Assembly: GCA_013265495.1 (NCBI GenBank)
Contig: MU057651.1
Coordinates: forward strand, 1,623,674 to 1,687,673
Length of the DNA stretch: 64,000 nucleotides
Direction: 5' to 3'
Origin: Vicugna vicugna
Lineage: Eukaryota
Within the stretch, counting starts at the first letter, position 1; each line of letters opens with the position of its first letter. Of this stretch, positions 441-54,471 are shown piece by piece. The notes below the pieces were generated by a model, which saw only the letters and a list, made by a program, of their open reading frames with translations, had not been told where the DNA came from and ran no database searches. A program made the position numbers and the translations under genes.

Positions 441-1110
441 AATGTGCAATAGAAAAGCAAAATAAACTTAAACAAGCAGAAGGAAATAATAAAGAGCAGA
501 AACCAGTTAAATTGAAAACAAAAATAATTTAGAACATCAGTAAAACATAGAGGGTTTTTTTTTTGTTTGTTTGTTTGCTTTTGTTTTCAAATTGTGCTGA
601 GTTTTAAGCCAAACTCCTAGAGGCCAACTTGTTCTACGGTAGTTGTCCTGCTCTCTGACAGCCCAGCTCTGTGCCGGTTTTCTGTTGAAAACTGGGCTCT
701 GGCTTTGCAGGGATTTTACAGTCGATAATCAGAGAGGATTCTGGAGGGAGTCGTGGGCAGAACCTCCCCGTGGATCAGTCCCGGAGGGCGGGGAGCTCGG
801 TCCGGAGCCGGTGATGGCTGGAGCTGGGTTTGGGGTGCACGGCGTTCATTACACCATTCTTGTCCACATTTGTATTGACCTGAAATCTCAAACAGCAGAA
901 ACGTACGAAACAGGGACCAGTTAACCACATTCCAGTGAGGGAGCGCCAGGCAGTTCGCCACAGCTGGGACTGGAAGACAGGACACAGTCTGCATGGGATG
1001 GGGATGCGCCTGGCAATGTCTCTTCCTTTTTTGCACTTTTCTCTTCCATGTTTTCTGTCATCAGAAAAATGGCTGCCGGGAAACAGGGATCCTTACCTCT
1101 TTCTTTTTAG

Positions 1111-2030
<920 letters not shown>

Positions 2031-2122
2031 TAGTCCACCTCCAGTTCGGAGTCTCACCCGTCAGGGCCCAGCTCTGCCTTCCAGGACCTCTGCCTCCCCG
2101 TCTGGCCTCTCGTGGTCCCTGA

Positions 2123-2528
<406 letters not shown>

Positions 2529-2839
2529 ATCAGCGTCGCGTCTCCTCGTGTCCGGCTTCGTGCGCGCTTTGTATGAGGGTTTGCGGGGGGCGGAGAAAGC
2601 ACACGTGTGTTCAGTTCTCAACTGGACATACATTTAGGGAACGGGGTGCATTTCAGAGGCAAGCAGACCTGCGTTGACTCCACAAGAGGTTTTTTTTTTT
2701 TTGGTGAAAGTTTCTTTGGAGCCCCTGCCACCGTGTTAGCCTGACTTGGCGTTCCTCTGAATATCTGAAGTATTTCCAGGGAAATGAGGCAAAGACTTGT
2801 CCGCTGGAAGGGTCGTCAGATTTCACTCTCTAAGCAAGA

Positions 2840-3900
2840 AGTCAGGTCCGGCCCCCGGCGTCGCCCCGCCCCGGCGTCGCCCCGCCCCCAGACCCCTGGA
2901 ACCTGCGCGCCCCGCTCCATGTAGCTCAGTCGTGGGGTCCCCTCGCTGGGAGAGCCGAGGCCGGCAGGAGGGAGAATCCGTGGTGTCCCCTGAGGCCTCC
3001 GGTGAGTCTGGCAGCAGCCACGCTTGGGGCGTCCCCAGGTCCCCCGGCCCGGGCAGTCGGGCCTTGGGGCCTCACTGGCTTCGGCTGCCTCAGTCGGCTT
3101 CTCGGCCCTTGGTCACCAGCGCGGCCAGTTTCTGCTGCTCGGCTCTGCGCTGAGCGTTCGCTCCGGCTGCTCCCTGGGTGCGCGCTGGGGTTGCGCTCGT
3201 GCCGCGTGGCAGCCGGCTCTGACTTTTCGGGGTGCAGGGGAGCCGGTGGGGACCGCGGTCATAAAGCCCCTCCTCCCGGACTCTGAGGTCCCGCCCGAGC
3301 GAGGTGGTGGCCAGGTCAGTGCAGGGTGTACCGAGCCGAGCACCGTCCAGACGCCGACACCCCCTTCCCTCCTCTGTGCTGGAGGCTGTGGTGTGGACGG
3401 GGAGTGGCCTGCGGTTTCTCCCTGGGGTCCCCAGACGGTCCTCTGGGCACCCCGAATTTGAGGCTGCCCAGGAGGGAGCAGCCTGGTGGGCGGAGGTCCG
3501 GCTGGAGCCCCCCGGAGGCCGGCAGGTCCTGGAATGTGTGTGTCCGCTGGCCCGCCTGCAGGAGCTGTTCCCAGGCCGAGATCCCTGGGCCCCCAGATTC
3601 CCGAGCGCCCCAGACTCCAGGGCTGAGGCTGGCCCCCCACCGGGGTGCGTGTCTGCCAGTCCGTGAGACCCGGGCTCAGGCCCAGGCTAGGTCAGTCTCC
3701 CCGCAGCCTCCGGCTCGCTGAGCTGGGCTGGCCGCCGACGTGTGTGGCCCCTGCAGCCCACGTGTCCCGCCTGGGAGCCAGCGGGCCGTGGACACGGCTG
3801 ACCCCTGTCCGTGCTGTGGCCAGGCCTCAGGCTGCTGGGCTGAGGATGCGGACGGGCCCAGCGCTGCGGCCTGCGGGGGACCGACAGGCTGGTCCTCTTC
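2840..3900. promoter_or_regulatory. CpG-island-like region with tandem GC boxes
   Basis: Very high GC and CpG density. The unit ccccggcgtcgccccgc occurs twice at about 2853-2889 and contains CCCCGCCC (Sp/KLF) boxes. Confidence 0.45.
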
Positions 3901-5069
3901 GCACCCCTCCGTGCAGGTGTGACTAACGGGGTCCCACCTGGTCCAGCAGAGAGAACCCCATGGCTAACAGTATCTGAACCTTTTTCTTTTGGTAAAGAGG
4001 GTGGCACTTAACCTTCATTTACAGGACACTGCGAGATACCAAATTCCACATAGAAATGGGAAACCCTTCGGGAGGACAAGCAAGAAAAGGGCTGGTTCCC
4101 TGCACGGTGCCCAGTCTCCCCGCCGCGGCCCCCCACCCGCCATCCCAGAGCCTGCTCACTGACCACCTCCTGGGGACGGGGCCAGGCTGAGTATCAGGGC
4201 CCCTTGGACCAAGTTCTTTTCTCCCTGACATGGAGGCTCCCAGGTGGGCCTGCCTCGCCCTCTGCTGGCCATGAGAAGGAGGGCAGGTCACCACTCATGT
4301 GGCAGCCGGTGTCCCCAACCGCGGCCTCACCGGGGTTGTGGGCCAGTGATGACTCGCAGCAGGGCAGGACGGTGCCCACATGCAGGGAACGCTTGAACTC
4401 TGGTCCTGATGGGATAAAAATAACCACCACCCGCATTTCTGCCGGGACATCTGAACGCACCGGACTAGTTTCTGGATGACACCGGAGCCGACGTCCTCCA
4501 ATGCGTGTTCTCCGGGTTCCTCAGCATGCCTCCAAAGACCCGACCCTCCCTCCCCCGACTTCGCCCACCCCGCACCCGGCGGGGGCTGGGGGGACTTTGG
4601 CCGGGTCCCCCTGTCTCTTCCTTCATCCCAGGGAGATGAGTTGGTTTCCAGCCTCTGAGTGTCCTTGTCTCCCTGCCTTTCTGTTGTGGATTCAGCCTCC
4701 TTCTCCGCACCCCACCACCCCAAATATGATATTTATAAGCTGATTTGAGATGCCTTGTGACAGAGGGTCAGGAAAGAGAATTCCGATTTGCAGTGATGGA
4801 TGCCTGAGACACACAGCCCGCCGGCCCTGCACAGACCAGTCCTGGCACTGGGCTCAACATGCATGACCCGTTCTCTGCCGGGCAAGCCTCCGCTTTGCAG
4901 AGAATCCCCAGGAAGTTCCGGTCTCAGGATGCTTTGATATAAAGACCGTTCTGGTACCTCCGTGGTTTCCTCAGCGGCTTCCAGGGCCAAAGAAACCCCT
5001 GCCCTGGGTACGATGCAAGCAATCATCAGCCTTAAACTCCTTCCCCAGACTGTCGCCTGCAGGGACGCA

Positions 5070-9506: not shown

Positions 9507-9575
9507 ATGGGGCGGGCTGCGCGCCAGTTCCGAGCCCTGCTCTGGAAAAACTGGCTCTGCAGAATCAGGCACCCG
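9507..9575 (+). CDS. ABCA13: ABCA13 coding exon 1 (69 nt)
   Basis: Kozak context ggcATGG. Translates [23 protein letters not shown]. Donor CCG|gtgagt. Confidence 0.95.
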
Positions 9576-10939
9576 GTGAGTGAGTGCGGCGTGCCCCGCA
9601 GGGTGGCGGGGAGGTGGGTGAGGTCGGGGACGAGGGGCTGGTCCCCACACTCCCCGCAGGGAACTCGCGGAGGCCGGGTGACTGAACACCAGAACCCACC
9701 CTCAGGGCCAGAGTAGCTGAACCATTGTGAGCAGCTCAGAGTCAAGGCTGCGGCATTGGGTCAGAATAGGGCTAATTTAGAAATCTTCTTTAAAAAAAAA
9801 AAGGGGAGGGAATTTGAACTATAATAGATGTTCTGATGTAAAAACTGAACTGTGGACCTCCTCCTTGAGGGGACGGCATGGAATGCATTTAATGCAGAAA
9901 CACAGCCTCACAGGTAGCGAGTTCAGTCCGTGAGGCTGCACGGTGTCCGTGACCGGAGGCGGCACGAAGCATCACTCGGTGTAGTTCTTTGATGCCAGAC
10001 CTTGAGCGTCAACTCACATCTTTCGGGAACCGTGTCCAGACTGCATCCTGGGGCTCTCCTAAGTGGCTTGGACTTGCTCAGACCCAGTGTGCGCTGATGC
10101 CACATAAATACTCAGCGAGGGGGTGTCTTCATGGAGCAGAAGTCTTACTGTTCTGACCGGCTCGCCTTTACTCCTAACGCTGCTGGAGTAACATGAGCAC
10201 TTGTAAGCGTCACTTTCCGTGGACGTCGCTCCGTGTCCTTCCTCGCGTCAGGGCCCACACTTAGCTTATGGAGTTCGTTTATTTTTTTATTCTGCTGGGA
10301 GAAGTTCAGCCATTGACACTGAATTTCACTTTGCTGAATGCTCACATGCAGACTCTTCCTTCTTTCGCCTTCAAAATAAGGTCAATGTTAACAATGGTAA
10401 AAAAAAAAAACAGGTGTTTTCTCTCATGCAGAGATTTCTCAGGGTTAGAAAGACTTCAGTTGGAAATTTGCACAGACGCTGTGAAGTCAGGAGCTAAAAG
10501 TGAGACTCTCGATGGATTGTCAGTGTGTTGGTATCTGTGTAAGCTTTTATTTTTTTCAATTTACGAATGGCGTATTTTATTCACGTACTGTTGGTTTGGG
10601 GAGATCTAAGCCTATTTCCCCAGGAAAGAATTTTGCAGGTGGAAGTCAGGTACCCAGGCTCCACTCTGTCTGGTTTTTGCTACCAGCTCGTTTAAACCTC
10701 AGACCCGCTGAGTGGGCCAGGTACCGGGACTGACTCTCCTTCGTCACTGGACACCTGAGTTGTTTAAATGTCTTCATGGTTACGAACGCTGCTGAGATCA
10801 ACACCCACATCAGAAATGTCTTATGTGTTTATGAATTTGAGGACCGCTCCTATGAGCGGTAGCTCTGGCATCTCATTATTTGCCTTATTTTTCTTGTTGG
10901 TATTTATCACCTGGTGTCACGTGGATTTGCCTGTCAGTT

Positions 10940-27109: not shown

Positions 27110-27203
27110 GTCCTTTCCCTGTCTGAATTCTTCTGGCCATGTATCCTGTTCATGATCCTGACCATCCTTCGTTTTCAAGAACCTCCCAGACAGAGAGACA
27201 ATT
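27110..27203 (+). CDS. ABCA13: ABCA13 exon 2 (94 nt), first transmembrane helix
   Basis: Acceptor ttcttag|GTC and donor AATT|gtgagt. Translates [31 protein letters not shown], a hydrophobic segment with the ABCA E-x-x-WP motif. Confidence 0.93.
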
Positions 27204-27774
27204 GTGAGTTCCGCTTTCATAAAACGTTTGGAATTGCAAACCTCTGGAGGAAACAGTGCGGCATTCTTTTTTACTGTTGTTCTTTATAAATTCACCACCG
27301 CCGTCACCGTCATCATCCACCCAACTTTTCTGAACTTCTTTGCATTAAACGATCTTTAGCAACACTTAAACATTTAAGAACCCAAGGTATATCAGACTTA
27401 AAAAAATGGGCCAAACTAAGAGCTCCTACCTTTTTATGTGAGATGAGAAGGAGTCTCTATTCGTCTTCCTCCTGCTTACAGTGTCCTGGGGGCGTGGCTG
27501 CGTAGCAGAGGTATTGACGCTCCCTGAGCGGGACGATAGTGAATCGGGGGCCACGTACGTGGCCGGGCAGAACCGTTCTGCCTGGAGAAAGGTGTTACAT
27601 GTGAAGTGCTTCTTTGGTTCCTTCTTTTTTCTGTTCTGCATGCTCAGATCTTCTTTAAATTAACAAGAGCATTAATAACACAGTAACACTACATAACATG
27701 TCCGCGAACTCACCAGGGATTCTGTTTCCGGTAACAGCCGTATGGACTCATCTCTTTCTTGTATCCGCATCCAG

Positions 27775-27898
27775 GTTACTTGCAACCCCGGGATCTGCCC
27801 AGCCGGGGCGTCTTCCCCTTTGTCCGAAGCCTTCTGTGCAACACTGGGTCGAGGTGCAGAAACACCAGTTATGAAGGGTCCGGTGAGCACCGTTTTGG
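27775..27898 (+). CDS. ABCA13: ABCA13 exon 3 (124 nt)
   Basis: Acceptor catccag|GT and donor TTGG|gtaagc. Translates (C)[40 protein letters not shown], the conserved ABCA LPSxGxxPFxxSLLC motif. Confidence 0.93.
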
Positions 27899-29099
27899 GT
27901 AAGCGTCCTTTTCAGAATTCGTGGGAAGCCGGCGTGTAGAACGTGCACGATGCTTTTAGTGCAGCCTCTGTAATTCGGGATCGGTCGTGAAAAACAGAGA
28001 TCATGAAAACACAGAATCTGGAGTTACAAGAAAATCAGTCTTATTACATTCAGGCTCGCATGGTAACAGCTCCAAGTAATGCTTTGTTTCCAGCTCAAGG
28101 TCTTCCCACTGCTGTTTGAAGAATCGCACAGTGGTTTCTGATTAGGAAATGCCATCTGCTTGTCCTAGTTTGTGTTCTGTGGGTTTAAACTCTGTCCTCA
28201 AAATTCACTTTCTTAGCCAGCTATTCGTTTTGGTGCCAAATGCCCCCCCAAACAGGTATTTTTTTGAGTCACCCCCTGGACTTTTTCCTACTGTGCAATT
28301 TCTAACCAGAACCCTGTTCGCAACTGAGATCAATCAAAACACCTCTTTTTTCCTCAAACGAACCGCTTCCATGGACCAGGTGACAGTTAGCTCTCCTGCT
28401 GTGGCACTGGGTGCTACGCCAGGCCTGTGTCTGCCCACAGCACCAGGTGGCGTCAAAGACCAAATAAACAGAGAAAGAGCGGGAGATACTCTCAACATAA
28501 AGGAGGTTTTAACTTGGGGCATCATGACTGCCCTGGAATCTTCTCTCAGTGGAGCGCGGAGCGAAGGGAGGTGACTGACCAGTGGTCCGTGAATTCATCA
28601 CGTGTGAGTGATCTGGGCTTGTTTTCTCTGTACTTTGTGCCGCCGAGCAATCTGAGATGTTTAAACGTAAAGCACGTTAAGACACGTGACCTTATCTTTC
28701 ATCGTTAAGTGACGAGAAGGAGATAAAAAGTTTCTAGGTAATTTTGGACACATCTGGTGCAGTGTTTATAAACAGTGCTTAATTATGTTTTTTTTTTGAG
28801 ATAGGTCATATCCAAGTATGATGTGAAGAGTCATAACCCTGACATTCTTGGTGATCTTTTCCCACTGTGGCCAAAGAAAGTGTATCAAACTCCCCCTTTC
28901 TGGGAAAATTGGAAGACTGGAGGCGTTCAGCATCCCCGTTTCAAGTCTTCCTTGTGGCTCTTTGTTACTCGGCGTGGGAAGCTGAAATGCTGTCAAAGTC
29001 GGAAAAGTTGGGCTTCTCACCCCGACACTAGTTAGTTGCTTGAATCTCTGCAAATTTTTTTAAAATACAGACGATCCATTTTGTGGCTTTTTAATACAG

Positions 29100-35314: not shown

Positions 35315-35469
35315 TTCGTCTAGGTTCCAGAGTATAGTCGGCCGTGGCGAGAAGATCAACGACCTGGCCTTCTTGGTGGAGATCCAGGACCTCGCCGAGG
35401 AAATTTACGAAGTGATGGACAAGGCACAAAACTTGCAAACACTCTGGGTAGAAAGATCCAAGACCCCAG
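35315..35469 (+). CDS. ABCA13: ABCA13 exon 4 (155 nt, GC donor)
   Basis: Acceptor ctctaaag|T. Translates [51 protein letters not shown]. Donor CAG|gcaagt keeps frame with exon 5. Confidence 0.88.
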
Positions 35470-35684
35470 GCAAGTAAATCCGTCCAGCTGTCCACGCTCA
35501 GCTCCCGTGCGGCTGTGAGACCCAGAATGGCTTTAGAATCCTGTTTACGTTCATCAGTGTGGGCGTAGCTGTCTCCCGGGCAGGATTCTGGGGATGGTCC
35601 GCGTGGTTTTAGAACCCAGACAGGCGCTGGGCAGAGCGTTCTGACTGCTGAGTGAACTAAGCTCTGAAACCTTCTTTCTCGTAG

Positions 35685-36405: not shown

Positions 36406-36952
36406 TGGTTTTATGTCATGACTGTGTTGTCAAAATATTCTTTTAACCGCATTTAAAATCTTTACCTTCCTCCAGACTTAGAGTCTCTTGACTGTTGCAT
36501 CAAAACCAGCGTGGTGCTGGGGAGGGCGGGGGGGCGTTTTGTGTGGGTGGACACCCCAGTTATGGACCTGGGCGTCAGCTGGGACTGTGGTCCGTGTAGG
36601 AACGGAAAAACCCAGAACAACAGTGGGGCTTCCAGTTCTGTTCATGTTGGAACGGGTCACCTTTTCTGTCCAAAATCTATCTCAAAATCTGAGAAATCAG
36701 TCCACCTTGTTACAAAAACAGACCTGTGCCTCTCTGCCCAAACTTCCACAACGTTAACAAAACAAAACAAGACAAAAACACGTGCGGACTGATTTTGAAA
36801 TCTTCCCTGTTCAAATAGTGACGGATTCGGTGTGACCCTCCCCCACCCCGGCTTCTGCATCCTTAAGAGCTTTGCAGCTCTGCCCCCACCCCCGTCATTT
36901 AACTGATGTACGAAACTAAAGAGGGAACCTTGGGGCATTTTGCTTCTGTCAG

Positions 36953-37116
36953 ATGGACCTCAATCAGACCGAGGAGGCGATAGCGACACTGGAACATCTG
37001 CTCCGGCAGCCCCAGGTCTGGGACTTCCTCCTTTCCCTGCCGGGGCTGTTCGCGCACAACGTGCACGTGGAGGACGGCGTCCGGGCTGCACTTCACCTGC
37101 TCCGCGCGGTGTTCAA
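36953..37116 (+). CDS. ABCA13: ABCA13 exon 6 (164 nt)
   Basis: Acceptor ctgtcag|ATG and donor TTCAA|gtacgt (ends in phase 2). Translates MDLNQTEEAIATLEHLLRQPQVWDFLLSLPGLFAHNVHVEDGVRAALHLLRAVF. Confidence 0.9.
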
Positions 37117-37344
37117 GTACGTTGAAAACAAGAACAGGACGAGTCGCAGGAGGGGATTCTGACAGTGGGGAGCCTGGCCTTGTGCAAAGAGCGTTGGGAT
37201 TGCTTCCTGGAGCAGGAAGTCCCACCAGCCGCCCTTAAACCCTACAGCAGCGAGTCCTAGCACCTCTCGCCGCGGCCGAGAGGGGGATCTAAGATGTAAG
37301 AAGACATTGAATCCTAGGATTCTTCTGGCATAAATAGCAGACTT

Positions 37345-37547
37345 TTTTATTTTCCATAATATACCTTTTCCTTTACATTTTCTAGCTCACTTTATTTACT
37401 TACGTTTGTGTGTGTGTGTGTGTGTGTCTGGGTGGACGGCAGTAATTAGATCTGCTTACTTATTTTTTGGAAGAGGGACTGGGGATTGAACCCAGGGCGT
37501 CGTGCCTGCTAAGCACGCGCTCTACCCCTGAGCTGTGCCCTCCCCCC
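37345..37547 (-). mobile_element. tRNA-derived SINE with (TG)n-containing tail
   Basis: ggggattgaacccagggcgtcgtgcctgctaagc...gagctgtgccctcccccc. Flanking direct repeats aatagcagactt and agttgcagactt. Confidence 0.82.
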
Positions 37548-37845
37548 AGTTGCAGACTTATCTTTAATGATCAGGCGTAGAAACACACTGAGTAAAGTCA
37601 TTTGCAGTGCGTTGTTTCCGGTGCAGGAGGCGGGCTTTAAGCTCAGCTGCGTTTGCAGGTTTCTAACACATTGCCAGATGCTCACGTTAATTTAATTTCT
37701 GTTGGGAAACCACACTTTGCAGGCAACATTTCATTCATGTTTCACTACAGACCAGTTCATCATCTTGAAAAAATATGGTAGGTTGAATTTGTCTTGAATT
37801 GATTGACTTTCTTCTGATTCTGAAACAGTTGTGTTACTATTACAG

Positions 37846-40800
37846 GGTCTTAACTTCCGCAGAGGGACTTCTGCTGGTGGAAGAGAAGTTGCACGCCCTT
37901 GGGGATGAGCAAGTGGGCTTTCTTTCATCTTTCATGGAATATTTGGAGAAATTTTTATTGCCGAATCTTTTCGACTCGGACGGGGCTCCCAGATTCCATA
38001 ACCTCTCATTTCTCCCCGAGACTATTCTAAATACAAGTCATTTGTGGATAAGTCGTTTTAAAAGTTTAGAGAGAGACCCATCTACGCAGACACTTCTGGA
38101 ATTCGGCGAAGAGATGATCAAAAAAGTCCAAACTCTTGAAAGTCTCTGGGTAAGGAAGGAATCAAGAAATATCTCGAGACTCATGGAACTGGTGCTTTCT
38201 CAAATTAACCCCAAGTTACTGGATTTGTGGATGCGTGGCCTTTCGGAAGGAGAAAGAGCTAAACTGGAAATCTTGCCTACAACTGCAAATTTTTCTGATC
38301 CAGAAAGTGAGACGGTTCTCAGGAAAAGCCTTAACTTTTCCCAGTTGTTCCGTTCAGATGGGCCTACATCGCCAGCCACGGAAATGGATTTTGTTCGTTT
38401 AAGTGAAATTATGATAAAAAGTCTCCAAGAATTTGGATTTCTGAGGCAGGAGCAGGTCTCGAAAGCTGTGGACACAGTCTACGCCCTGAGGAACGCATCT
38501 GATCGTTTCTCAGCCCTTTCGGAACCTCAGAAACGAGACGTTGATCAAATGTTGACTCATCTGTATGTCAGTGTCTTCCAGGACCCAGACGCAGCCTTGC
38601 TTCTGCAGATTTATTGTTCATTTTACCAAAGCATGAATCAGCTCTTGAGCATTCGGACTGGAGAATCTTTGCTGTCTTTCCTGACACAAACCTCAAAACA
38701 CATTTTGAACCTCACAAAGCAGTTTGATCTCCAAGAGTTCAGTAAAGCAATTACGTTCTTCCATGAAACAGCGAGGGTTCTCGGGGGAGTTTCTGAAGCA
38801 TCTTCTTGTCAGCAGTTGCTTGCGATTTTTAACTTTTTGGAGCATCAAGGCCAATCCCCAGTGTCTGCAGAGGGCCCAGAAACGGCGGCGATCCACGTGA
38901 CTCTGACGGGCCTCAGGCAGCTCTTCACCGTGGACGAGGATTTCCGTGTTGCTTTGCTTCAGTACGTGAGCCAGCTCTTCAACGGCTCAGTAGAAGCCCT
39001 GCTGGGGCATGAATGCTCTGTTTTGGGTGATAAAAGCATTTCTCCTGTGAACTATTCGATAGATGGGGGGTCTTCAGTCATTCCTCCGTGGGCTCAGATC
39101 CTTTCCAGCCTCTCAGCCAACGGCAGTAAACTCAGTGAGTTTATGGGGGTCCGTTGCACCATCTCATGGCTTCAGATGTGGACTGAAGTCTGCACGTACG
39201 TGGCTCGGGTATGTCAGCTGGACGTGAATGTTCTCAGTCCTCTCCACGATGGCCTCACTCAGCTTTTGGGTGAGCTGGAAAGAGATGTGAACATTCCTCG
39301 GGGCTGCCCGGGACTGTTTCCCACCCATCACCCTGCTCGCCTCTTACTACATTTGTTTAAAAATTTAACCCCACCGGATGGCTTTCACGATTGGGACAAC
39401 GTTCTGAGTCTTAAGGGCCTCTCGGCAGCATTAAGAGATGGGTTAGTCAGAGCAAAGCTGCTCCGCCTGGACCACGTGGAGAAATTCCTCTTCACCGTGG
39501 AAACTGCCCTGAGTCAGCTAAAGTCACTCCCATCAAACACGCCTGGGAGCAGAGACTTCTTACATTCTGTGCTTGACGTTTTCATGGAATTGAGCAACAC
39601 TGCAGAACAGACAGAGAGACGTGTCCATCGGACCCGTCGCTTTCTTTCAAATAATCTCTCAAATTATGAAGCAGAGTTTGCAAGTCTCATTCCTCGCCTG
39701 AGAGAAACGGTATTATTTCTTAAAAATGTGTCTCACGACCGAGATTTACCGTCCTGTGCTGACGTCTTCCGAAATGTAACGGAGTTTATTTTGGAAGGTG
39801 GCCTATGCTGTGTGAATACTTCGCAGAGGACGTCGCACCTCCTGGCCGTGTTAAATTCCACGTTTTCCTCCGAGGACGCAGTTAGCAGACTGGAGGGGTG
39901 CGTCGCATGGATAGACACCGTCAGCCGTCTGTGTGTGATGGGTAACTCCAGCTTTTCACAAGGCCGTCCTCAGGGCCTTTTGGGGAGCTTCGCGGACGTG
40001 GAAGACAAAATTAACTCCACCTTGAAGCTTGTTACTTGGCTGTTGGCTGGAACGGAACCCAGCTGTTCACCGAATACGTCAAATATGAATTGTGTGAATG
40101 CTTACTTAAAAAACGTGACTGCCTTGCTGAACGCGATACTTGCTACAGTCTTTGAGAAAGAAGGGGTTCCCGAATTTGAGATTTTATCAACTCTTTTCAA
40201 TGATTCCACAAACCAAGTCAAGATGGTTATCGGCCACTTGATGAGAGACTTCGACTTTCCGTCTCAGTCCAACTGGACACGTTTCACTGAGCTGGTTCTA
40301 AAACCCATCGAAAGAGCAGACAAAATGCCGCATCGATTTCAAAACATCTGGCTGCATTTGGCAGCTCTGGGGAAGGGAGTTCAAACACTTGTGAAAGGTA
40401 TTTCCGCTAATGTCCTGGGAAATGACACCTCTTCTAAAACTGAAAAAATTGTAAAGGTATTTGCTACCAGTGCAAGGGAAACAGACATACACGGTGTAGG
40501 CAACTCATTGTATCAGTTGGCTAGTTACCTTGCTCTCAATTTATCTCACGATCCCCAACATCCGCCCAGAACAAGTACGCATGAAATGCTGAAAGCTGTG
40601 GGTCTCAGCATGCAACTGGCGAGGGACGTGTTCAACTCCCTGATGCACTCAGTTTATCGAAATGTTCCGCAAGACCCAGACAATTTCCAAGTTGTAAAGA
40701 AGGTGGCTTCTCTCCTGCGCAGTCTCAAGAAGACGGACATAGACCTGCTGGTAGGTCAGGTGGAACAAATCGGTGACAGCTTGGTGGGTTTCTTTCAGAA

Positions 40801-42582
40801 TGTCAGCCGGTTAGGTCCTGGCAGTTTGGGGGTCAACTTGCTCGTTGACCTGATGGAGAAGCTTGTAGACAGCTCCCGCGCCTGGAACGTCAACCCCCTG
40901 CTGAGGCTCTCACGTCTGTTTCCTAAAGATGACTTGAGCGCCGTGGTGGACGCGTACCACGGGCTCCCTCACGCCGTGAGGCTCCTGCGGGGAGCAGCGG
41001 ACAAAAACGTCACGGCCGCCCTCAAGGACGTCTACAACTTCACCCTTCTCCACGGCACCTGCATCGCCAACGTCAGCAAGGAAGACTTCGCCGAGGTCAT
41101 CAAAACTCTTTCGGACACGATTGAACTCATCTCAGATAAACCTGAAGTTCTTTCCGAGGCTTTAACGTGTCTCCCTGTGTTTTGGTGCGGGAATCACTCA
41201 GCTTCTGGACTCCGGCAGAACCCCGAGTTCGAAAGCTGTGCTGCCCGCGTGCTCACGTTCCCAGCCTTGTACAGCGGCGTGGCCGGCGTACTTGCCCACC
41301 TGCGTCTGTCTGCCCCAGCGGAGGAGTCACGGTGTTTAAATGAAAGCTCACAGGAGGAAGTAACTCGGAAAGTGGTCTGTGCGATGCATGAATTAATGGA
41401 CTGGAACTCCATTCTTCTAGAGCTGTCTGAAGTCTTCCGTGTTAGAACTCTGCTGGTGAAAAATGTGCAAGACTTTTGGCAAAAGGTGTTGCCATTTGTC
41501 GCGGCTCCTGGAAATCACAGCAGGGGGAGCCTCTCTGAACTTTGTCCCCGTGGGCCCATCAAGCAAGTTGCTTTGCAAATTATAGAAAAATTAAAAAATG
41601 TCAACTTTACAAAAGTCACATCGGATGGCAACCTTCCTGACAAGCTAGCTAGTTTAAACGTTGACGAAGCAGAAGCATCTGCTCGAAATCATACTTTCTT
41701 AAATTTGGAAAGGGTAATGAACTTGCTTTCTGGCGACCAGAGCCTAGGGAACAGTACGAATTCTCTCGTCTCCCCCTTCACGATGTTTCTGAATGCAAAC
41801 CTTACGGGTCGTGCTTTACAACCATTGTCAAGTTTTATTAAAAAAAGTGAGGCTGCTTCTAGCCTTGAAGAACTTGGGCTTGAGTTTGACCGAATCCTGG
41901 AAGATCTCACCCATGACTTGAGTATCGGGCCCCTGTTTTCTGAAGGAAACAAAGAGATGCAAATGGCTCATTCAGCTCTTCTTCAAAACATAACTTTGCA
42001 GCTTGCCCGTTTTTTGGAAAGCCTGGATTCATTGTCCCTGAAGGCGTTGGAAATTGCTGAAGATTTTTTATTGGCTGTTAAAAAGTGGCTTCATGAATTC
42101 ACAAAGGGAGGTTGCTCTAGAATGATACAAACGTTATTTCTCCTTGCGGCCGACGGGAGTTCAGCTGATGATACAGCCTCGTTGACCAAAGACGTTACCG
42201 CCCTTTGGGATTATCTCAGAAACGTGTCTGGGGAAGGTCATTTGAAGGTTGCCTTTCTCCCTCATCTGCTCAACCAAGAACGGCTACCTGATTTCTCAGT
42301 TGTTCGGCTGCTTTTCGAAAGCTTCCTGAGCAATCGGACCGATACCTTAGCAGCCGTGGACGTAAGTGATGTGGGCCTTCGGGTAGTGGATTTCATCGGC
42401 CGCGCCTTGAACCAGACGCCGTCGGAGGATGGCGGGAGGCTCACCGTCCCTCCGAGGAGCATGGTGGATTTCACGGAACGGCTTTTGGAGACATTCTTCT
42501 CATTTTTTCTAAAGGAAAATTCTGGGGACAAAATGGCTCTTCTGCTCAAAGACGTCCACGGAGATACCTCAGCAGAGATGAG
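37846..42582 (+). CDS. ABCA13: ABCA13 giant exon (equivalent to human exon 17), 4737 nt
   Basis: Lies within the 1595-aa ORF 37799-42586. Acceptor tattacag|G and donor ATGAG|gtgagt, phase 2-2. Leu-rich with many N-x-S/T sequons, consistent with the extracellular domain. Confidence 0.95.
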
Positions 42583-43109
42583 GTGAGTCTGCTCTTATAG
42601 GCGCTGTGTGTTACAATCAGCTTCGTTTCCTGGAATATACGAATGCCACTAATCGTGTTGTACAAGCACCTCTGAACCATCTTCGAGGTGAATGTTGGTC
42701 TTAATGAACATCAAGGGTAAATAATTTTGACGATTGTCATCTAACTAGTGAACATGTATATAAACCTGTCCCCTGGCAATTAGTCACTTACTGCAGTTTC
42801 CTGCATTTTTGGATTATGGAGATAATTAAGAAATTCTATTTCATATAGAATTGAGAAATTAGTTATTCTATACGTAGATGCATATATACCATGGACGTAT
42901 TTTGAGTTAATGCATTAACTGTCTAATCACAAATGAAGGGTTTAAATGTTTTCGTTCCAATGAACCTGCTGTGATGTTTACATTTGCAATTGATCAAACT
43001 TTAAAATTTTAAAACTGAAGATTATTTTTTTCCCCCACGTATCTTTATTTTTTAATCCCTTTTGAAGCTTGCCAGTGAGACGGCTGGAGGGAAATTCTGA
43101 TTCTGTGTC

Positions 43110-44107: not shown

Positions 44108-45913
44108 TTTTGTCCTAAAGGATAAAATCCTAGACATTTTGAAAGCAGATCAATTTCTTACCTCCGTGAAAGAAGACAGATTGAGGAACATTTTTTCAAC
44201 TTTAAAGGAGACTCTGCACCATTTAGTCAAACACTCATTTACAGTAGACGGTGGAGGATTCTATGTGGATAATGATCAAGGATGGATGTTTATGAGAGAT
44301 TTATTTACCCGTCGTCTCACGGAAACCTTCTCACTGAAAAACAAGACAGATAACGACTTGGGGTTTCTTACGGCGGTGGTGAAGCACTTGTTTTCGGAGA
44401 AGAACGGTTCCGAGGACCTTGTCAAACTCAATCGAGATCTGAGGGCAGCTCTTCGCCTCGTGAGAGAAGCTTCAGCCGGGATGGCAGGTCTCCTGGACAC
44501 GCTCTCGAACTCCCCTGTTAAGGACTTCCTTGGCGCATACCCTGCCCTCCAAGAAGTCATACTTGCCAATTTAACCGACTTGCTTTCCTTGGCAAATAAC
44601 TCATTCCTTCTAAGAAACAGAGCAACGCTGGAAATTACTGAGAGGTTGCTAGGTGTGGTCGCAAGAGCTGGTGGGCACGGTCAGGTCCTGGAGCCCCTCC
44701 TGGAAATGTCTGATGCTCTGATCACGCTGGTGCGGGACGGTGCTGCTTTGAGACGTCTAGCCACGTCCGTGAACTCCACCGTGGGACTTCTCAACCTGGC
44801 CAAGGGCGTTTCAAGGAGGATGGCCTCTCTGGTTGCAGCTCATTTCAGCGCCAGCGCCAATGACACCATGAAAATCTTGGACACTCTTTATTCCGTTTTG
44901 CAACAAAGTGTTCGAAATGTCGTGAATGAAACAGCTACAGTGAAAAAAGGAGATCAGTTACTGTTTGAAAAGATAGATGACTTGTTGACACCATTTCTTG
45001 ACTTGGCTTTTGGGATGATTGGAGTCAAACCTAGTAGTTCACAGGACTCTGATATTTTCAACATATCAGCTCACGTATTCGCTTACGTGAACCAGTCCAA
45101 AGAGTTTTATGATCTTTCGGAAGAGATAGCTGGGTTTCTAAGTTCTGTGAACATCGATGCGGGAGACGTGGAACATCTCGTGGTAGCATTTAACAATGAG
45201 ACCGAAGGGTTTCCCGTGGATTCTGTCAGCTTGTGGGAAGAAATCCTGGCTTGCTTAATTCCTATAAATAACATCGCCAACCAGATAGAGTTTTTATTGT
45301 CGAATCCAAGTTCCACTCGTGATGGCCCTCAAGACACAGCGTGGGGAAGACTTCATGATGTGGTCCTGTTTCTGCGTGAAATGCTCTCACAAAACAGCAC
45401 AGAAATAGAGGCTTACTGGAGACAGGGGATTGGTCACATCTTAGAAGCTCGTTGGAACGACTTGGGGGAGGATGTCCGGAAGGTGTTTGATCTGTTGCCG
45501 TCATCGGCTCAGCATCCAGACGAGCTTTGGAAAGCCATAAAAACCGCGGCGGGGGTCCCCGGCGGGCTCACAAGGGACTACTCGCGTGGTGCGAGTGAAG
45601 CTTTGCTTTTCAGCACCTCTGTGATTCAGAATGTCACTCGTCAACAGCTCGGAGAGGCGCTCGCGACAGTGTTGGGTGCGATGGCTCTCCCTCACTGGGC
45701 ACGTTCCCCGGGAGCCTGGCTTCAGCCCGTTGCTGAGATTTTCATTAACGCCACCACTGGAAAGAACATCACGTCAGGAGCAGAAGAGACGCCAGAGACG
45801 GGGCAGGCTGATTCCCCTTCCCCTCTCACACCGGTACCACGTTGCGAGAAGTTCCTGAAGGGCTTAATTGCATGGATTGAATACTGGCAGGAGGTCTCAC
45901 TGTCAGATCAAAG
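44108..45913 (+). CDS. ABCA13: ABCA13 second large exon (equivalent to human exon 18), 1806 nt
   Basis: Lies within the 613-aa ORF 44076-45917. Acceptor tttacag|T and donor CAAAG|gtaaga, phase 2-2. Translates (S)FVLKDKILDILK...WQEVSLSDQ. Confidence 0.95.
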
Positions 45914-49021: not shown

Positions 49022-49330
49022 GCTTCCTCACCTTGACTTCCGTCTTGCTTTCCCTCTTGATGCCCTTCCATCCTGGACCTTTGCATTTCAAGAGGCTGGA
49101 CCATGACCACAAGAGAGAGCACTTCTCAGGTTCACGAGCAACACAATGCTCTGAATTGAAACGGGGGACCCGCCGCTCTCCAGTCCGTGTCTCCTGTGAT
49201 TTTCATGGAGTAGACGGCTGGGCAGGGAGACGGTTCCTTCACATGTGTTACGACTTTTCCTTGCACAGAGAAGTGGTGCTCCCAGTTGCAGACTTTCCCC
49301 TTTAATGAGGTTGTCTGTTTCTTCCCTAAG

Positions 49331-49440
49331 TGTTGCTGAACTGTGTCGGGCTTTGCAGCAGCCTGTGGAGCCCCTGGAAGCTACGGCGGCCCTGCGGAGA
49401 GCGGGGATGCTGGCCCTGCGCGCGCTGGTCCTCCTTGCAG
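49331..49440 (+). CDS. ABCA13: ABCA13 exon 19-equivalent (110 nt)
   Basis: Acceptor ttccctaag|T and donor GCAG|gtgggt. Translates (S)VAELCRALQQPVEPLEATAALRRAGMLALRALVLLA. Confidence 0.87.
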
Positions 49441-50836
49441 GTGGGTGCGTCCGCGCGCGGGTGCCCGGGGCCCGCGTCCGGAGCTTGGCTGTCTGCACCA
49501 TGGCTCGTGAGCTGCTCTTGGACTAAAGCGCGGCCTTCCTGCCTGATACCCGAGGGCCCTGAGGGCCTGGTCCACCCCTCCTCCCCAGCCCCACCATGGA
49601 GATGCTTTTCCAGCTGAGGGCATCCACCCCTTCCCCTGCCCCTGAGCTTGGCTTCTGGTCCCTGCGTCTTTGCTCGTGGAATGTGCCCCCTGTCCTTCTG
49701 AGCTGCCCTGTGGCTGGAGAAGGCACGCCCTCGTCTCCTGGGTGGGCAGTGACCTGGGCAGACAGGATCAGTGCTCTGATCTCATACGTCCGCCTCCTCT
49801 AACGGAGTCACTGTTCCTTGGAGGCTGCGGCCACGTGGTCGCCTTCTGTGCACATCCACGCGGTGACCTGAATTCCCAGAATCCTTTCTCTGAACTCCCG
49901 GCATTTTTACTTATATTTGAGTTTCCTGGTAGCTGCTTCTGCAGCCGTTTGCAACTTCACGGAGAGCAGGATCTGCTCCTTGTTCGGTTCCGTCTCCGTT
50001 ATACTCAGCTTAGTGTGTCCCCGGGGGTAATTCATACTCAATTGTGAATGAATGAATTTGTCTCCTGAGATCCGACCTGCCAGATCCGTTGCTACAGATT
50101 TGAGTGAAACTTCCTCTCGAGGCCGTTGTTGGAGGAATGGACCGTGAGCTGCCCTCTGGGCTGGCTGGGTGCCTTTGATGACTTTCTCTGAGATGCACAC
50201 ATGAGGTCTCAGAGCCCCTCCGCGTCCACAGACAGGACCAGGGCTGCTTACGTAGCTTCGCACCCGCTCCCAGGCTGCTGGTTTTTGTGGCTTGGCCACC
50301 TGCACGAGGCTGCAGCCACCCTGTTGGTGCTGCCAGGGACGGGGTCCTTGCAAACACTGACGGCAGTGGGTGTGGGCTGATGGGTGTGAGCCCGGGGCAG
50401 GAGGGGCAGGGAGGAGAAATGGGTCTGATCACACTAAGAGCAGAAGAGGGGGCCAGGGGCCAGCTGAGGGGCCTTGAGCGCTGGTGGATCCCGCCAGCCT
50501 CAAATCAACTGTGTGCGTAATTCCGCCTTCATACTGAGTGACGGGGGACACTACCCGTCCCTACTCCCGGCCAGCAGGAGAAAGCCGAGACTGTCCTGGG
50601 CCAACTGGGGCCACCAGGTAGCCTGCCTCGGGGGACAGGAGAAGGGCCCGTGTGGGGAGGTGGGGGGAGGCGCTCACTGCCCTGCATTCAGTGGGGCCCA
50701 GAGAAAACCAGGTCTTCACTTGGTTACATTTGAGTCCCTGAAGGTACAGCCTCCCCCTCGTACTCTGAACCTTCATCTTGATGATTTAAGAAATCTTTGC
50801 GAATCTGTACCGTTTTGAATGTTCAAAAAGTGATTT

Positions 50837-51062
50837 CGAGATTTGCAGATACACACTGCTGCATATAAAATAGATAAACAACAAGGGTCTAAGGTGCAGC
50901 ACAGGGAACTCTATTCAATACCTCGTAATGACCTATACTGAGAAAGAACTTGAAAAGGAATATACGCATGTGCATGTATGACTGAAGCGCTGTGCTGTGC
51001 ACCAGAAATCAACACAGCGTTGTGAACTGACTAGACTTTGATAAAAACATATAAATGCAAAA
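50837..51062 (+). mobile_element. L1 3'-end fragment (second copy at about 53126-53351)
   Basis: cgagatttgcagatac...aaatagataaacaacaag...agcacagggaactctattcaatacc...gctgtgcaccagaaatcaacaca...gactagact. Confidence 0.82.
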
Positions 51063-51140
51063 AATACGATTTCATGCAAGTGGCTAGCTGGGGAGCGGAC
51101 AGTTTCCTGATGGCTTCTCTCTGTGTGTTTCCCCCGGCAG

Positions 51141-51259
51141 AAAACCCTTCCTGGACCGAGGACGTCCTCTGTGTCCCTCTGAGTGATGAGCAGGGCTGGA
51201 TAAGGCGCCTCGCTTTATCTGTTCTCCGAGGGGTCGCTCTGGTGCAGGACCACCTCCAG
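51141..51259 (+). CDS. ABCA13: ABCA13 exon 20-equivalent (119 nt), copy 1
   Basis: Acceptor ccggcag|AA and donor CCAG|gtgtgt. Translates (E)NPSWTEDVLCVPLSDEQGWIRRLALSVLRGVALVQDHLQ. Confidence 0.85.
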
Positions 51260-52067
51260 GTGTGTTGGCTTTGCTGTGCCCGAGGCTGGCCTGTCCATGA
51301 CGACTGGCCCACGCTAGGCAGCCCCGTCATACTGCGCTTGCTGGCTCGGTCCCCAGAAGCGAGGTGACGGCAGTGCGCGGTCACGGGGGCGGTCGGGGCG
51401 GCAGAGCGCGTGTTGACACGTCCCCCGTGGCTTCTCCGGTGGCCGGTGCCGACTCCTGTGCGCCGGCTGCTACGCTGTCAGGAAGTTTGCACGCTGGTTC
51501 TTACACGTAGACGTCATTGATGGTTACATTCTGTAGACGTGATAAAAAGTTAAACTCAAACGTACTGGATACACGGATTCATCGCTTCCTAGTCCCTTTC
51601 GTGTGTTTTGCTGATGTCTGTTCTCCTGAGATCGTTTATAGCTCTTGCGTCTAGACGGTGGGACACCACGTGCCTCTCTCTTCTCAAGTCTGTGCTGGGG
51701 TGTCATGTCGGCTGCTTGGACTGGTTCCACGGTGGGAGCACTCACACCGAGAAGGCAGCCTGTGTGACAGACGGGGTCTGTGTTTCTTCAAAGAGCCGTC
51801 ATTGCCCATTTACTGGCCCCGCGCGGGGTGTGACCGGCAGCGCACTGGCAAGTTCCAGGGGCTCAGAGCTGACGGGAACCGGCGTGGACGTCCTCTTTGC
51901 CTTCCCTGGGGCTTTTATCCGGGGCCGACGCCACTGCCTCGACGTTAACGAGCTCTGGGCCCATGGGCATCACCCCTGAGCTGCTGGGGAAGCCTGCACG
52001 ATGGAGTTTTTTTTTTTTTAATGCAACTGATACCAATTTTTTTTTTAATTTAAAAATCTTTTTGGGG

Positions 52068-52223
52068 NNNNNNNNNNNNNNNNNNNNNNNNNNNNNNNNN
52101 NNNNNNNNNNNNNNNNNNNNNNNNNNNNNNNNNNNNNNNNNNNNNNNNNNNNNNNNNNNNNNNNNNNNNNNNNNNNNNNNNNNNNNNNNNNNNNNNNNNN
52201 NNNNNNNNNNNNNNNNNNNNNNN
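52068..52223. other. Assembly gap (156 N)
   Basis: Run of N characters. Confidence 0.99.
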
Positions 52224-53429
52224 GCTTCTGCAGCCGTTTGCAACTTCACGGAGAGCAGGATCTGCTCCTTGTTCGGTTCCGTCTCCGTTATACTCAGCTT
52301 AGTGTGTCCCCGGGGGTAATTCATACTCAATTGTGAATGAATGAATTTGTCTCCTGAGATCCGACCTGCCAGATCCGTTGCTACAGATTTGAGTGAAACT
52401 TCCTCTCGAGGCCGTTGTTGGAGGAATGGACCGTGAGCTGCCCTCTGGGCTGGCTGGGTGCCTTTGATGACTTTCTCTGAGATGCACACATGAGGTCTCA
52501 GAGCCCCTCCGCGTCCACAGACAGGACCAGGGCTGCTTACGTAGCTTCGCACCCGCTCCCAGGCTGCTGGTTTTTGTGGCTTGGCCACCTGCACGAGGCT
52601 GCAGCCACCCTGTTGGTGCTGCCAGGGACGGGGTCCTTGCAAACACTGACGGCAGTGGGTGTGGGCTGATGGGTGTGAGCCCGGGGCAGGAGGGGCAGGG
52701 AGGAGAAATGGGTCTGATCACACTAAGAGCAGAAGAGGGGGCCAGGGGCCAGCTGAGGGGCCTTGAGCGCTGGTGGATCCCGCCAGCCTCAAATCAACTG
52801 TGTGCGTAATTCCGCCTTCATACTGAGTGACGGGGGACACTACCCGTCCCTACTCCCGGCCAGCAGGAGAAAGCCGAGACTGTCCTGGGCCAACTGGGGC
52901 CACCAGGTAGCCTGCCTCGGGGGACAGGAGAAGGGCCCGTGTGGGGAGGTGGGGGGAGGCGCTCACTGCCCTGCATTCAGTGGGGCCCAGAGAAAACCAG
53001 GTCTTCACTTGGTTACATTTGAGTCCCTGAAGGTACAGCCTCCCCCTCATACTCTGAACCTTCATCTTGATAATTTAAGAAATCTTTGCGAATCTGTACC
53101 GTTTTGAGTGTTCAAAAAATGATTTCGAGATTTGCAGATACACACTGCTGCATATAAAACAGATAAACAACAAGGGTCTACGGTGCAGCACAGGGAACTC
53201 TATTCAATACCTCGTAATGACCTATACTGAGAAAGAACTTGAAAAGGAATATACGCATGTGCATGTATGACTGAAGCGCTGTGCTGTGCACCAGAAATCA
53301 ACACAGCGTTGTGAACTGACTAGACTTTGATAAAAACATATAAATGCAAAAAATACGATTTCATGCAAGTGGCTAGCTGGGGAGCGGACAGTTTCCTGAT
53401 GGCTTCTCTCTGTGTGTTTCCCCCGGCAG

Positions 53430-53548
53430 AAAACCCTTCCTGGACCGAGGACGTCCTCTGTGTCCCTCTGAGTGATGAGCAGGGCTGGATAAGGCGCCTC
53501 GCTTTATCTGTTCTCCGAGGGGTCGCTCTGGTGCAGGACCACCTCCAG
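53430..53548 (+). CDS. ABCA13: ABCA13 exon 20-equivalent, copy 2 (within probable false duplication)
   Basis: Same sequence as 51141-51259 at an offset of 2289 bp, on the other side of the N gap. Confidence 0.6.
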
Positions 53549-54324
53549 GTGTGTTGGCTTTGCTGTGCCCGAGGCTGGCCTGTCCATGACGACTGGCCCA
53601 CGCTAGGCAGCCCCGTTATACTGCGCTTGCTGGCTCGGTCCCCAGAAGCGAGGTGACGGCAGTGCGCGGTCACGGGGGCGGTCGGGGCGGCAGAGCGCGT
53701 GTTGACACGTCCCCCGTGGCTTCTCCGGTGGCCGGTGCCGACTCCTGTGCGCCGGCTGCTACGCTGTCAGGAAGTTTGCACGCTGGTTCTTACACGTAGA
53801 CGTCATTGATGGTTACATTCTGTAGACGTGATAAAAAGTTAAACTCAAACGTACTGGATACACGGATTCATCGCTTCCTAGTCCCTTTCGTGTGTTTTGC
53901 TGATGTCTGTTCTCCTGAGATCGTTTATAGCTCTTGCGTCTAGACGGTGGGACTCCACGTGCCTCTCTCTTCTCAAGTCTGTGCTGGGGTGTCATGTCGG
54001 CTGCTTGGACTGGTTCCACGGTGGGAGCACTCACACCGAGAAGGCAGCCTGTGTGACAGACGGGGTCTGTGTTTCTTCAAAGAGCCGTCATTGCCCATTT
54101 ACTGGCCCCGCGCGGGGTGTGACCGGCAGCGCACTGGCAAGTTCCAGGGGCTCAGAGCTGACGGGAACCGGCGTGGACGTCCTCTTTGCCTTCCCTGGGG
54201 CTTTTATCCGGGGCCGACGCCACTGCCCCGACGTTAACGAGCTCTGGGCCCATGGGCATCACCCCTGAGCTGCTGGGGAAGCCTGCACGATGGAGTTTTT
54301 TTTTTTTTAATGCAACTGATACCA

Positions 54325-54471
54325 TTTTTTTTTTTAATTTAAAAATCTTTTTGGGGCGGGGAGGTCATTAGGTTTACTTACTTATTTAGGTTTTAGAGGA
54401 GGGACCGGGGATTGAACCCGGGACCTCGTGCATGCCAAGCACGCGCTCTGCCACCGAGCTGTGCCCTCCCC
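54325..54471 (-). mobile_element. tRNA-derived SINE
   Basis: ggggattgaacccgggacctcgtgcatgccaagcacgcgctctgccaccgagctgtgccctcccc. Its tail is where the duplicated contig ends at the gap. Confidence 0.85.

Follow-up and report, generated by a model that had tools for sequence, protein, structure and literature searches.

A probable in-frame deletion of about ten exons upstream of the giant exon of ABCA13 in camelids

The 64,000-nucleotide stretch analysed here (Vicugna vicugna assembly GCA_013265495.1, contig MU057651.1, positions 1,623,674 to 1,687,673 of the forward strand; hereafter the window) contains exons of ABCA13, a lipid-transporter gene that encodes the largest ABC protein. In the window the fifth coding exon is followed by a single short intron and then by the giant exon of the gene. 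A stretch of about 500 residues, which canonical ABCA13 carries between these two exons, is absent here. We regard a genomic deletion on the camelid stem, which took out a block of about ten exons and left one in-frame hybrid intron, as the best explanation, with a probability of roughly 0.78. A large in-frame loss had been proposed from the letters alone (the sequence-only reading), and the proposal is supported: the block is missing from the intron, the locus and the assembly, and Camelus gene models show the same junction. The features at the junction are the following.

36924 to 37116, plus strand: coding exon 5 (called exon 6 in the sequence-only reading), phase 2 end, GTG TTC AA/gtacgt; candidate starts 36922, 36924 and 36953
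37117 to 37845, plus strand: single intron of 729 bp, no N, no exon remnant; it stands where orthologs carry about ten exons with their introns
37406 to 37428, no strand assigned: (GT)n microsatellite inside the 729-bp intron, read from the sequence
37442 to 37549, minus strand: tRNA-derived short interspersed element (SINE), the only repeated part of the intron; orientation and tRNA-like boxes read by eye
37846 to 42582, plus strand: giant exon, 4737 nt, phase 2 start, no stop, followed by the donor GTGAGT; 55-61% identity to at least 60 mammalian ABCA13 proteins

The upstream exon ends at 37116, directly before the donor GT at 37117-18. The downstream boundary reads ttacag/G GTC TTA ACT, with the acceptor AG at 37844-45 and the exon start at 37846. 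Both boundaries are in phase 2, in agreement with the sequence-only reading. The GTC at 37847 lies in the frame of a 1599-codon open frame (37787-42586). The predicted splice thus joins AA and G into a lysine codon and gives the in-frame product ...AVF-K-VLTSAEG..., as had been claimed. In human numbering the lost exons are presumably exons 7-16 and the giant exon exon 17; five coding exons were counted upstream of the junction here.

The description of the intron as 729 bp of sequence without N, with one SINE and nothing exon-like, also held when the intron and the genome were searched. In a genome search with 36900-37900 only query positions ~503-671 (~37402-37570) recurred (3593 first-look candidates, 40 scored, 71-89% identity). 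The rest of this segment is single copy, and only the SINE recurs; hence neither an undeleted allele nor an isolated half of the intron stands on any contig. The only N run of the window is at 52068-52223. The SINE seems, by eye, to be flanked by an imperfect repeat of ~10 bp, which would fit an ordinary insertion and is too weak to decide on SINE-mediated recombination.

Under the proposed mechanism, a deletion in the camelid stem lineage would have run from inside the intron after exon 5 to inside the intron before the giant exon. It would have removed about ten small exons with ~1.3-1.5 kb of coding sequence, and the 729-bp hybrid intron would be the only remnant. Since the upstream exon ends after two codon bases and the giant exon supplies the third, the original donor (37117) would splice in frame to the original acceptor (37845). 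The split codon AA/G would encode lysine; in full-length orthologs asparagine follows the upstream exon and arginine precedes the giant exon. The predicted product would be an ABCA13 shorter by ~430-505 residues in the N-proximal part of the very long first luminal/extracellular region, and it would keep the first transmembrane helix, the giant exon and both transporter halves. Full-length mammalian ABCA13 has the same exon order, the giant exon, the second large exon and both transporter halves; the camelid gene differs from it in lacking the ~430-505 residues before the giant exon and in the new lysine codon at the junction.

Search for the missing exons

The assembly searched comprises 2.03 Gb in 12405 contigs, and the locus comprises 264 kb, including 200 kb fetched downstream of the window. 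The protein encoded by the giant exon matched 81 long proteins at 55-61% identity and 97-100% coverage, the named ones nearly all being ABCA13. The top match was the pig protein (61%); a further comparison gave 99% identity with an alpaca ABCA13 model and 91% with dromedary. In a profile search of five single exons of the locus, two passed the cut-off of 25 bits for ABC_tran (PF00005), scoring 25.6 and 31.5 bits. ABC2_membrane_3 (PF12698) was matched by two exons with 22.8 and 16.1 bits; the cut-off of 31.6 bits applies to whole proteins, and lower scores are expected for single exons. One of the five exons had no domain match. On the giant-exon match, the exon collinearity and these domains, the gene in the window is assigned as the ABCA13 ortholog.

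The window was searched by tblastn with the ABCA13 proteins of cow, chimp, musk deer, raccoon dog (P0006) and pig (pig-X2). Upstream of the giant exon, five coding exons were matched, at 9507-9578, 27110-27205, 27777-27914, ~35316-35513 and 36944-37111. Between exon 5 and the giant exon, cow residues 218-645, chimp 210-706, musk deer 220-649 and pig-X2 173-678 remained unmatched. The raccoon dog model gave no matches to the last two upstream exons and has no bearing on the missing block. Over ~183 kb, cow residues 1-217 and 646-4885 were matched in order, with 218-645 as the sole gap, and the cow and pig proteins are collinear downstream to the last exon (joined coordinate 191916-192011).

A relaxed search of the 729-bp intron for the block returned only noise, the best hit being 17 residues on the minus strand at E 0.043. 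The same search of the 264-kb locus gave scattered matches, all with E > 0.07 and differing between queries. When the pig, chimp and cow pieces were searched against the whole assembly, only chance matches on unrelated contigs were obtained (E 5.9 for pig, 1.4 and 1.5 for chimp, 0.15 and 3.3 for cow), and the contigs differed with each query. As a control, the whole pangolin protein recovered from the assembly two short flanking exons (57.7 and 50.2 bits; 65% and 60% identity) and both large exons. Nothing in the assembly matched pangolin residues 122-615 in that same search, which used a stricter first look, so that matches under ~60 bits may escape it. About 430-505 residues, or about ten small exons, thus have no counterpart in the intron, the window, the locus or the assembly.

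A collapse or mis-join of two introns through a shared SINE, in which the block was dropped, could also yield such an intron. A SINE does lie in the middle of the intron, and 12 kb downstream the same assembly contains a local artefact: the 2133 bp before the N gap (49935-52067) are 99.5% identical to the 2133 bp after it (52224-54356). The block is, however, on none of the 12405 contigs, no contig carries one intron half alone, no N occurs at the site, and gene models from camelid assemblies of another genus share both the junction and the intron sequence. We consider such an artefact very improbable. Placement of the exons on another scaffold, which would have undone the sequence-only reading, is likewise contradicted by the contig search. 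In sequencing runs, the shares of sampled words of 36600-38800 were 0.79-0.86 in 14 DNA-like runs (5 organisms, 7 studies) and 0.15-0.20 in RNA runs; they are uninformative on the junction or on expression, because a mis-join would alter few words only.

The doubled 2133 bp resemble redundant flanks of the gap and point to an artefact of assembly, not to a real tandem duplication; one ABCA13 exon is doubled across the gap (51068-51259 and 53357-53548).

The junction in other camelids and other mammals

A search with the 54-residue peptide of the exon led to the C. ferus protein XP_032332222.1, which reads ...LLRAVFK/VLTSTEG.... Two C. dromedarius models (one in the XP_032332222.1 cluster, the other P0098) share this K/V junction, and a C. 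bactrianus model in the same cluster begins within the giant exon. The alpaca model P0097, 99% identical to the window, is also without the block, and its giant exon is extended 49 nt upstream. In P0111, an older C. ferus model, the reading continues into intron sequence that corresponds to 37216-37306 of the window. The models of C. ferus, C. dromedarius (two) and alpaca all lack the block, in line with the sequence-only reading.

The living camelid genera are, according to NCBI, Camelus, Lama and Vicugna. The Camelus proteins are 98.6-99.3% identical among themselves and 91-92% identical to the window. The latter value places the window on the other living camelid branch, so the layout without the block predates the Camelus split. 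The loss very probably reflects a genomic deletion that took place before camels and llamas split, and not a mis-join. Separately, the camelid models (alpaca P0097, dromedary P0098 and P0085) contain a 34-residue exon at 49308-49409 that the cow and pig proteins do not match at E 1e-4.

The alpaca model also bears on how the junction is spliced. The block may be gone and the intron real while the mRNA does not join 37116 to 37846, using instead another acceptor or a start inside or after exon 5. P0097 reads AVFN-ELIDFLLILKQLCYYY-R-VLTSAEG, with the inserted stretch mapping to 37796 onward, and other camelid models start at a methionine of exon 5. The bases before the alternative start are 'ct' in the window, not 'ag', however; within the open stretch 37787-37845 the exon start at 37846 follows the only canonical AG, by eye, that keeps the frame; and the three Camelus models that contain exon 5 use the K/V junction. 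Splicing other than from 37116 to 37846 is therefore quite unlikely, and use of the deletion junction in the mRNA is what we infer.

The block was further followed in stored ABCA13 models, with the exon 5 peptide and the start of the giant exon as anchors; 84 models carry both and 23 do not. Between the anchors, 39 of the 84 have 467-505 residues, which indicates that the block is ancestral. In 18 of the 84 the distance is 0-1 residues: three Camelus models (1 residue each), 14 models from seven noctilionoid bat species and one from the northern elephant seal. The models of six phyllostomid bats (Sturnira, Artibeus, Desmodus, Glossophaga, Phyllostomus hastatus and P. discolor), of the mormoopid Pteronotus and of the northern elephant seal join the same two exons as the camelids do, with AV[LV]K followed by V or I. 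It is found in 7/7 noctilionoid species, including 8/8 Desmodus isoforms. As bats and seals belong to other orders, these events must be independent of the camelid one. The bat and seal gene models may reflect genomic loss or skipped exons. In the southern elephant seal the model retains the peptide that directly precedes the giant exon, so that skipping or annotation may account for the junction of the northern species. Mammals with the block may already make the junction in an isoform that skips these exons, and the elephant seal model is a hint of this.

Between the anchors the remaining bats carry 86-297 residues, so that all examined bats have a shortened stretch in their gene models (0-297 against ~500 residues). 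Shorter stretches were also seen in tenrecs (296), a pig variant (383), cat (407) and bovids and canids (~409-452); models with a shortened stretch include P0021, P0026, P0056, P0058, P0068, P0069, P0081 and P0110. The stretch is either labile or systematically hard to annotate. Where it is kept, the block is 58-63% identical between orders, compared with 63-66% for the giant exon. The block is thus about as conserved as the giant exon, and its loss is not trivially neutral.

State of the gene around the deletion

The remaining coding exons of the window that were delimited are listed below.

9507 to 9575, plus strand: ABCA13 coding exon 1, ATG start (MGRAARQF...), phase 0 end, donor GTGAGT; 75-88% identity to ortholog residues 1-24 (tblastn)
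27110 to 27203, plus strand: coding exon 2, first transmembrane helix, phase 1 end; 81-91% identity to residues 24-55 of chimp, cow, musk deer and raccoon dog
27775 to 27898, plus strand: coding exon 3, conserved Cys-rich ABCA motif, phase 2 end; 65-88% identity to five orthologs (80-88% to cow, musk deer and pig)
35315 to 35469, plus strand: coding exon 4, ~65% identity to cow, chimp, musk deer and pig, raccoon dog unmatched; candidate ends 35469 before a GC donor (CAG/GCAAGT, phase 1) or 35473 before GTAAAT (phase 2)
44108 to 45913, plus strand: second large exon, 1806 nt, open throughout, within a 619-codon open frame

The sequence-only reading had placed exon 5 at 36953-37116. Its end stands, but its start does not. 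Cow, chimp, musk deer and pig match it from 36944 onward (raccoon dog was unmatched), and homology to other mammals reaches ~30 nt upstream of 36953, to 36923, the point to which the pig alignment appears to project back without a gap. The real exon 5 acceptor is probably the AG at 36920-21 or that at 36922-23. Two pairings with exon 4 would be in frame: the GC donor (CAG/GCAAGT, 35470) with the AG at 36922-23, and the GT donor at 35474, 4 nt later, with the AG at 36920-21.

Besides the redundant gap flanks described above, several points weigh against a deletion in an otherwise working gene. The exon 4-exon 5 link is doubtful, since splicing in frame takes either a GC donor or a weak acceptor; the tandem AGs at 36920-23 sit behind a weak pyrimidine tract. 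Neither candidate donor would keep the frame with the strong-looking acceptor ttttgcttctgtcag/ATG at 36953. This may be the reason why RefSeq-style camelid models start at the ATG there: all three such models begin at this methionine inside exon 5. They also end early, at three different places and each time by read-through into an intron. Gene models are moreover predictions and can skip exons. Finally, the camelid stem shows a ~1.5-fold higher rate of change in the giant exon than pig or ruminants do. In a tree of the giant exon the camelid stem measures 0.30, and the root-to-tip distance is 0.49-0.50, compared with 0.36 for pig and ~0.35 for ruminants. The fast stem could mean relaxed constraint.

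The end branches after the camel/llama split are short (0.049 and 0.043), and in amino-acid composition the rows of the window, dromedary and Desmodus stand apart from the others in this tree.

These points raise the possibility that the deletion is real but only one lesion in a decaying gene, or in a gene that no longer makes a full transporter, its exons being translated from another start or not at all. The start and the early ends of the three models, the frame-breaking acceptor that looks best at 36953, the long stem branch with the odd amino-acid make-up, and the ~8-9% of giant-exon residues that differ between the window and Camelus would all fit such decay. The reading frame speaks for an intact gene. 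Among 47 high-scoring segment pairs across the locus a stop occurs in five, each time in intron read-through at the edge of the pair, and no in-exon stop is found across ~50 exons and 190 kb. Between the two camelid lineages, represented by the window and dromedary, the alignment of 1579 giant-exon residues has 0 gaps. The Cys-rich exon 3 is identical to that of the C. ferus model P0111 at 41/41 residues. Both in-frame pairings remain available for the doubtful exon 4-exon 5 junction, and the ends of the models are read-through at different sites, not a shared lesion. Decay is therefore judged unlikely. The retention of ABCA13 with open exons, which the sequence-only reading had taken as a sign of selection, is supported at the level of the open frame, the downstream exons all being present and free of internal stops. 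With the deletion as the preferred explanation, we infer in-frame joining of the upstream exons and production of a working protein.

At 884-3691 of the window, on both strands, there are ten overlapping open frames of 150-303 codons, with a weak musk deer match on the minus strand (3649-3335; E 2e-4, 32%). The cluster probably reflects high GC content or low complexity in the sequence ahead of the gene.

Significance of the shortened ABCA13

The giant exon, 4737 nt here, is given as 4.8 kb in the title of the report by Prades et al. (2002). Human ABCA13 has 5058 residues encoded by 62 exons, and its first extracellular region exceeds 3500 residues (PMC3293240). The alpaca gene sits on a chr36 scaffold together with HSA7p genes (PMC6598621). 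The N-terminal region has no known domains, and in mouse ABCA13 it is needed for vesicular localisation and cholesterol internalisation (PMC7948424). Short ABCA13 forms start at Met 2892 and are without ~2900 residues (Maess et al. 2013, cited in PMC7948424). Such a short form was mislocalised in HEK293 cells and showed no cholesterol internalisation (PMC7948424). These forms and the camelid gene product are both shortened in the long N-terminal region, but the former lose ~2900 residues by an alternative start, while the latter would lack ~500 residues by loss of genomic DNA.

A literature search combining ABCA13 with camel, alpaca, bats, exons and extracellular domain returned no report of this deletion; one preprint does no more than name ABCA13 in a list of selected genes. 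The deletion is visible in public gene models yet has apparently gone unremarked. For annotators, the finding means that the short camelid ABCA13 models are not assembly errors at this site.

As a lineage-specific exon loss in a fast-evolving region, the deletion is of modest general importance. A deletion of ~500 residues across the family with the frame left open marks a part of the N-terminal region that can probably be spared, and it offers a ready-made construct boundary for deletion mapping. The sequence-only reading had called the case a natural experiment on the ectodomain; it is less singular than supposed, as bat and seal models share the junction. It is possible, though we hold it only tentatively and at less than even odds, that the same phase-matched block of about ten exons was cut independently from ABCA13 in camelids and in the New World leaf-nosed and moustached bats, and was partly eroded in most other bats. 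If so, it would mark a dispensable module of ~500 residues in the N-terminal region of ABCA13, one that can be lost without destroying the gene.

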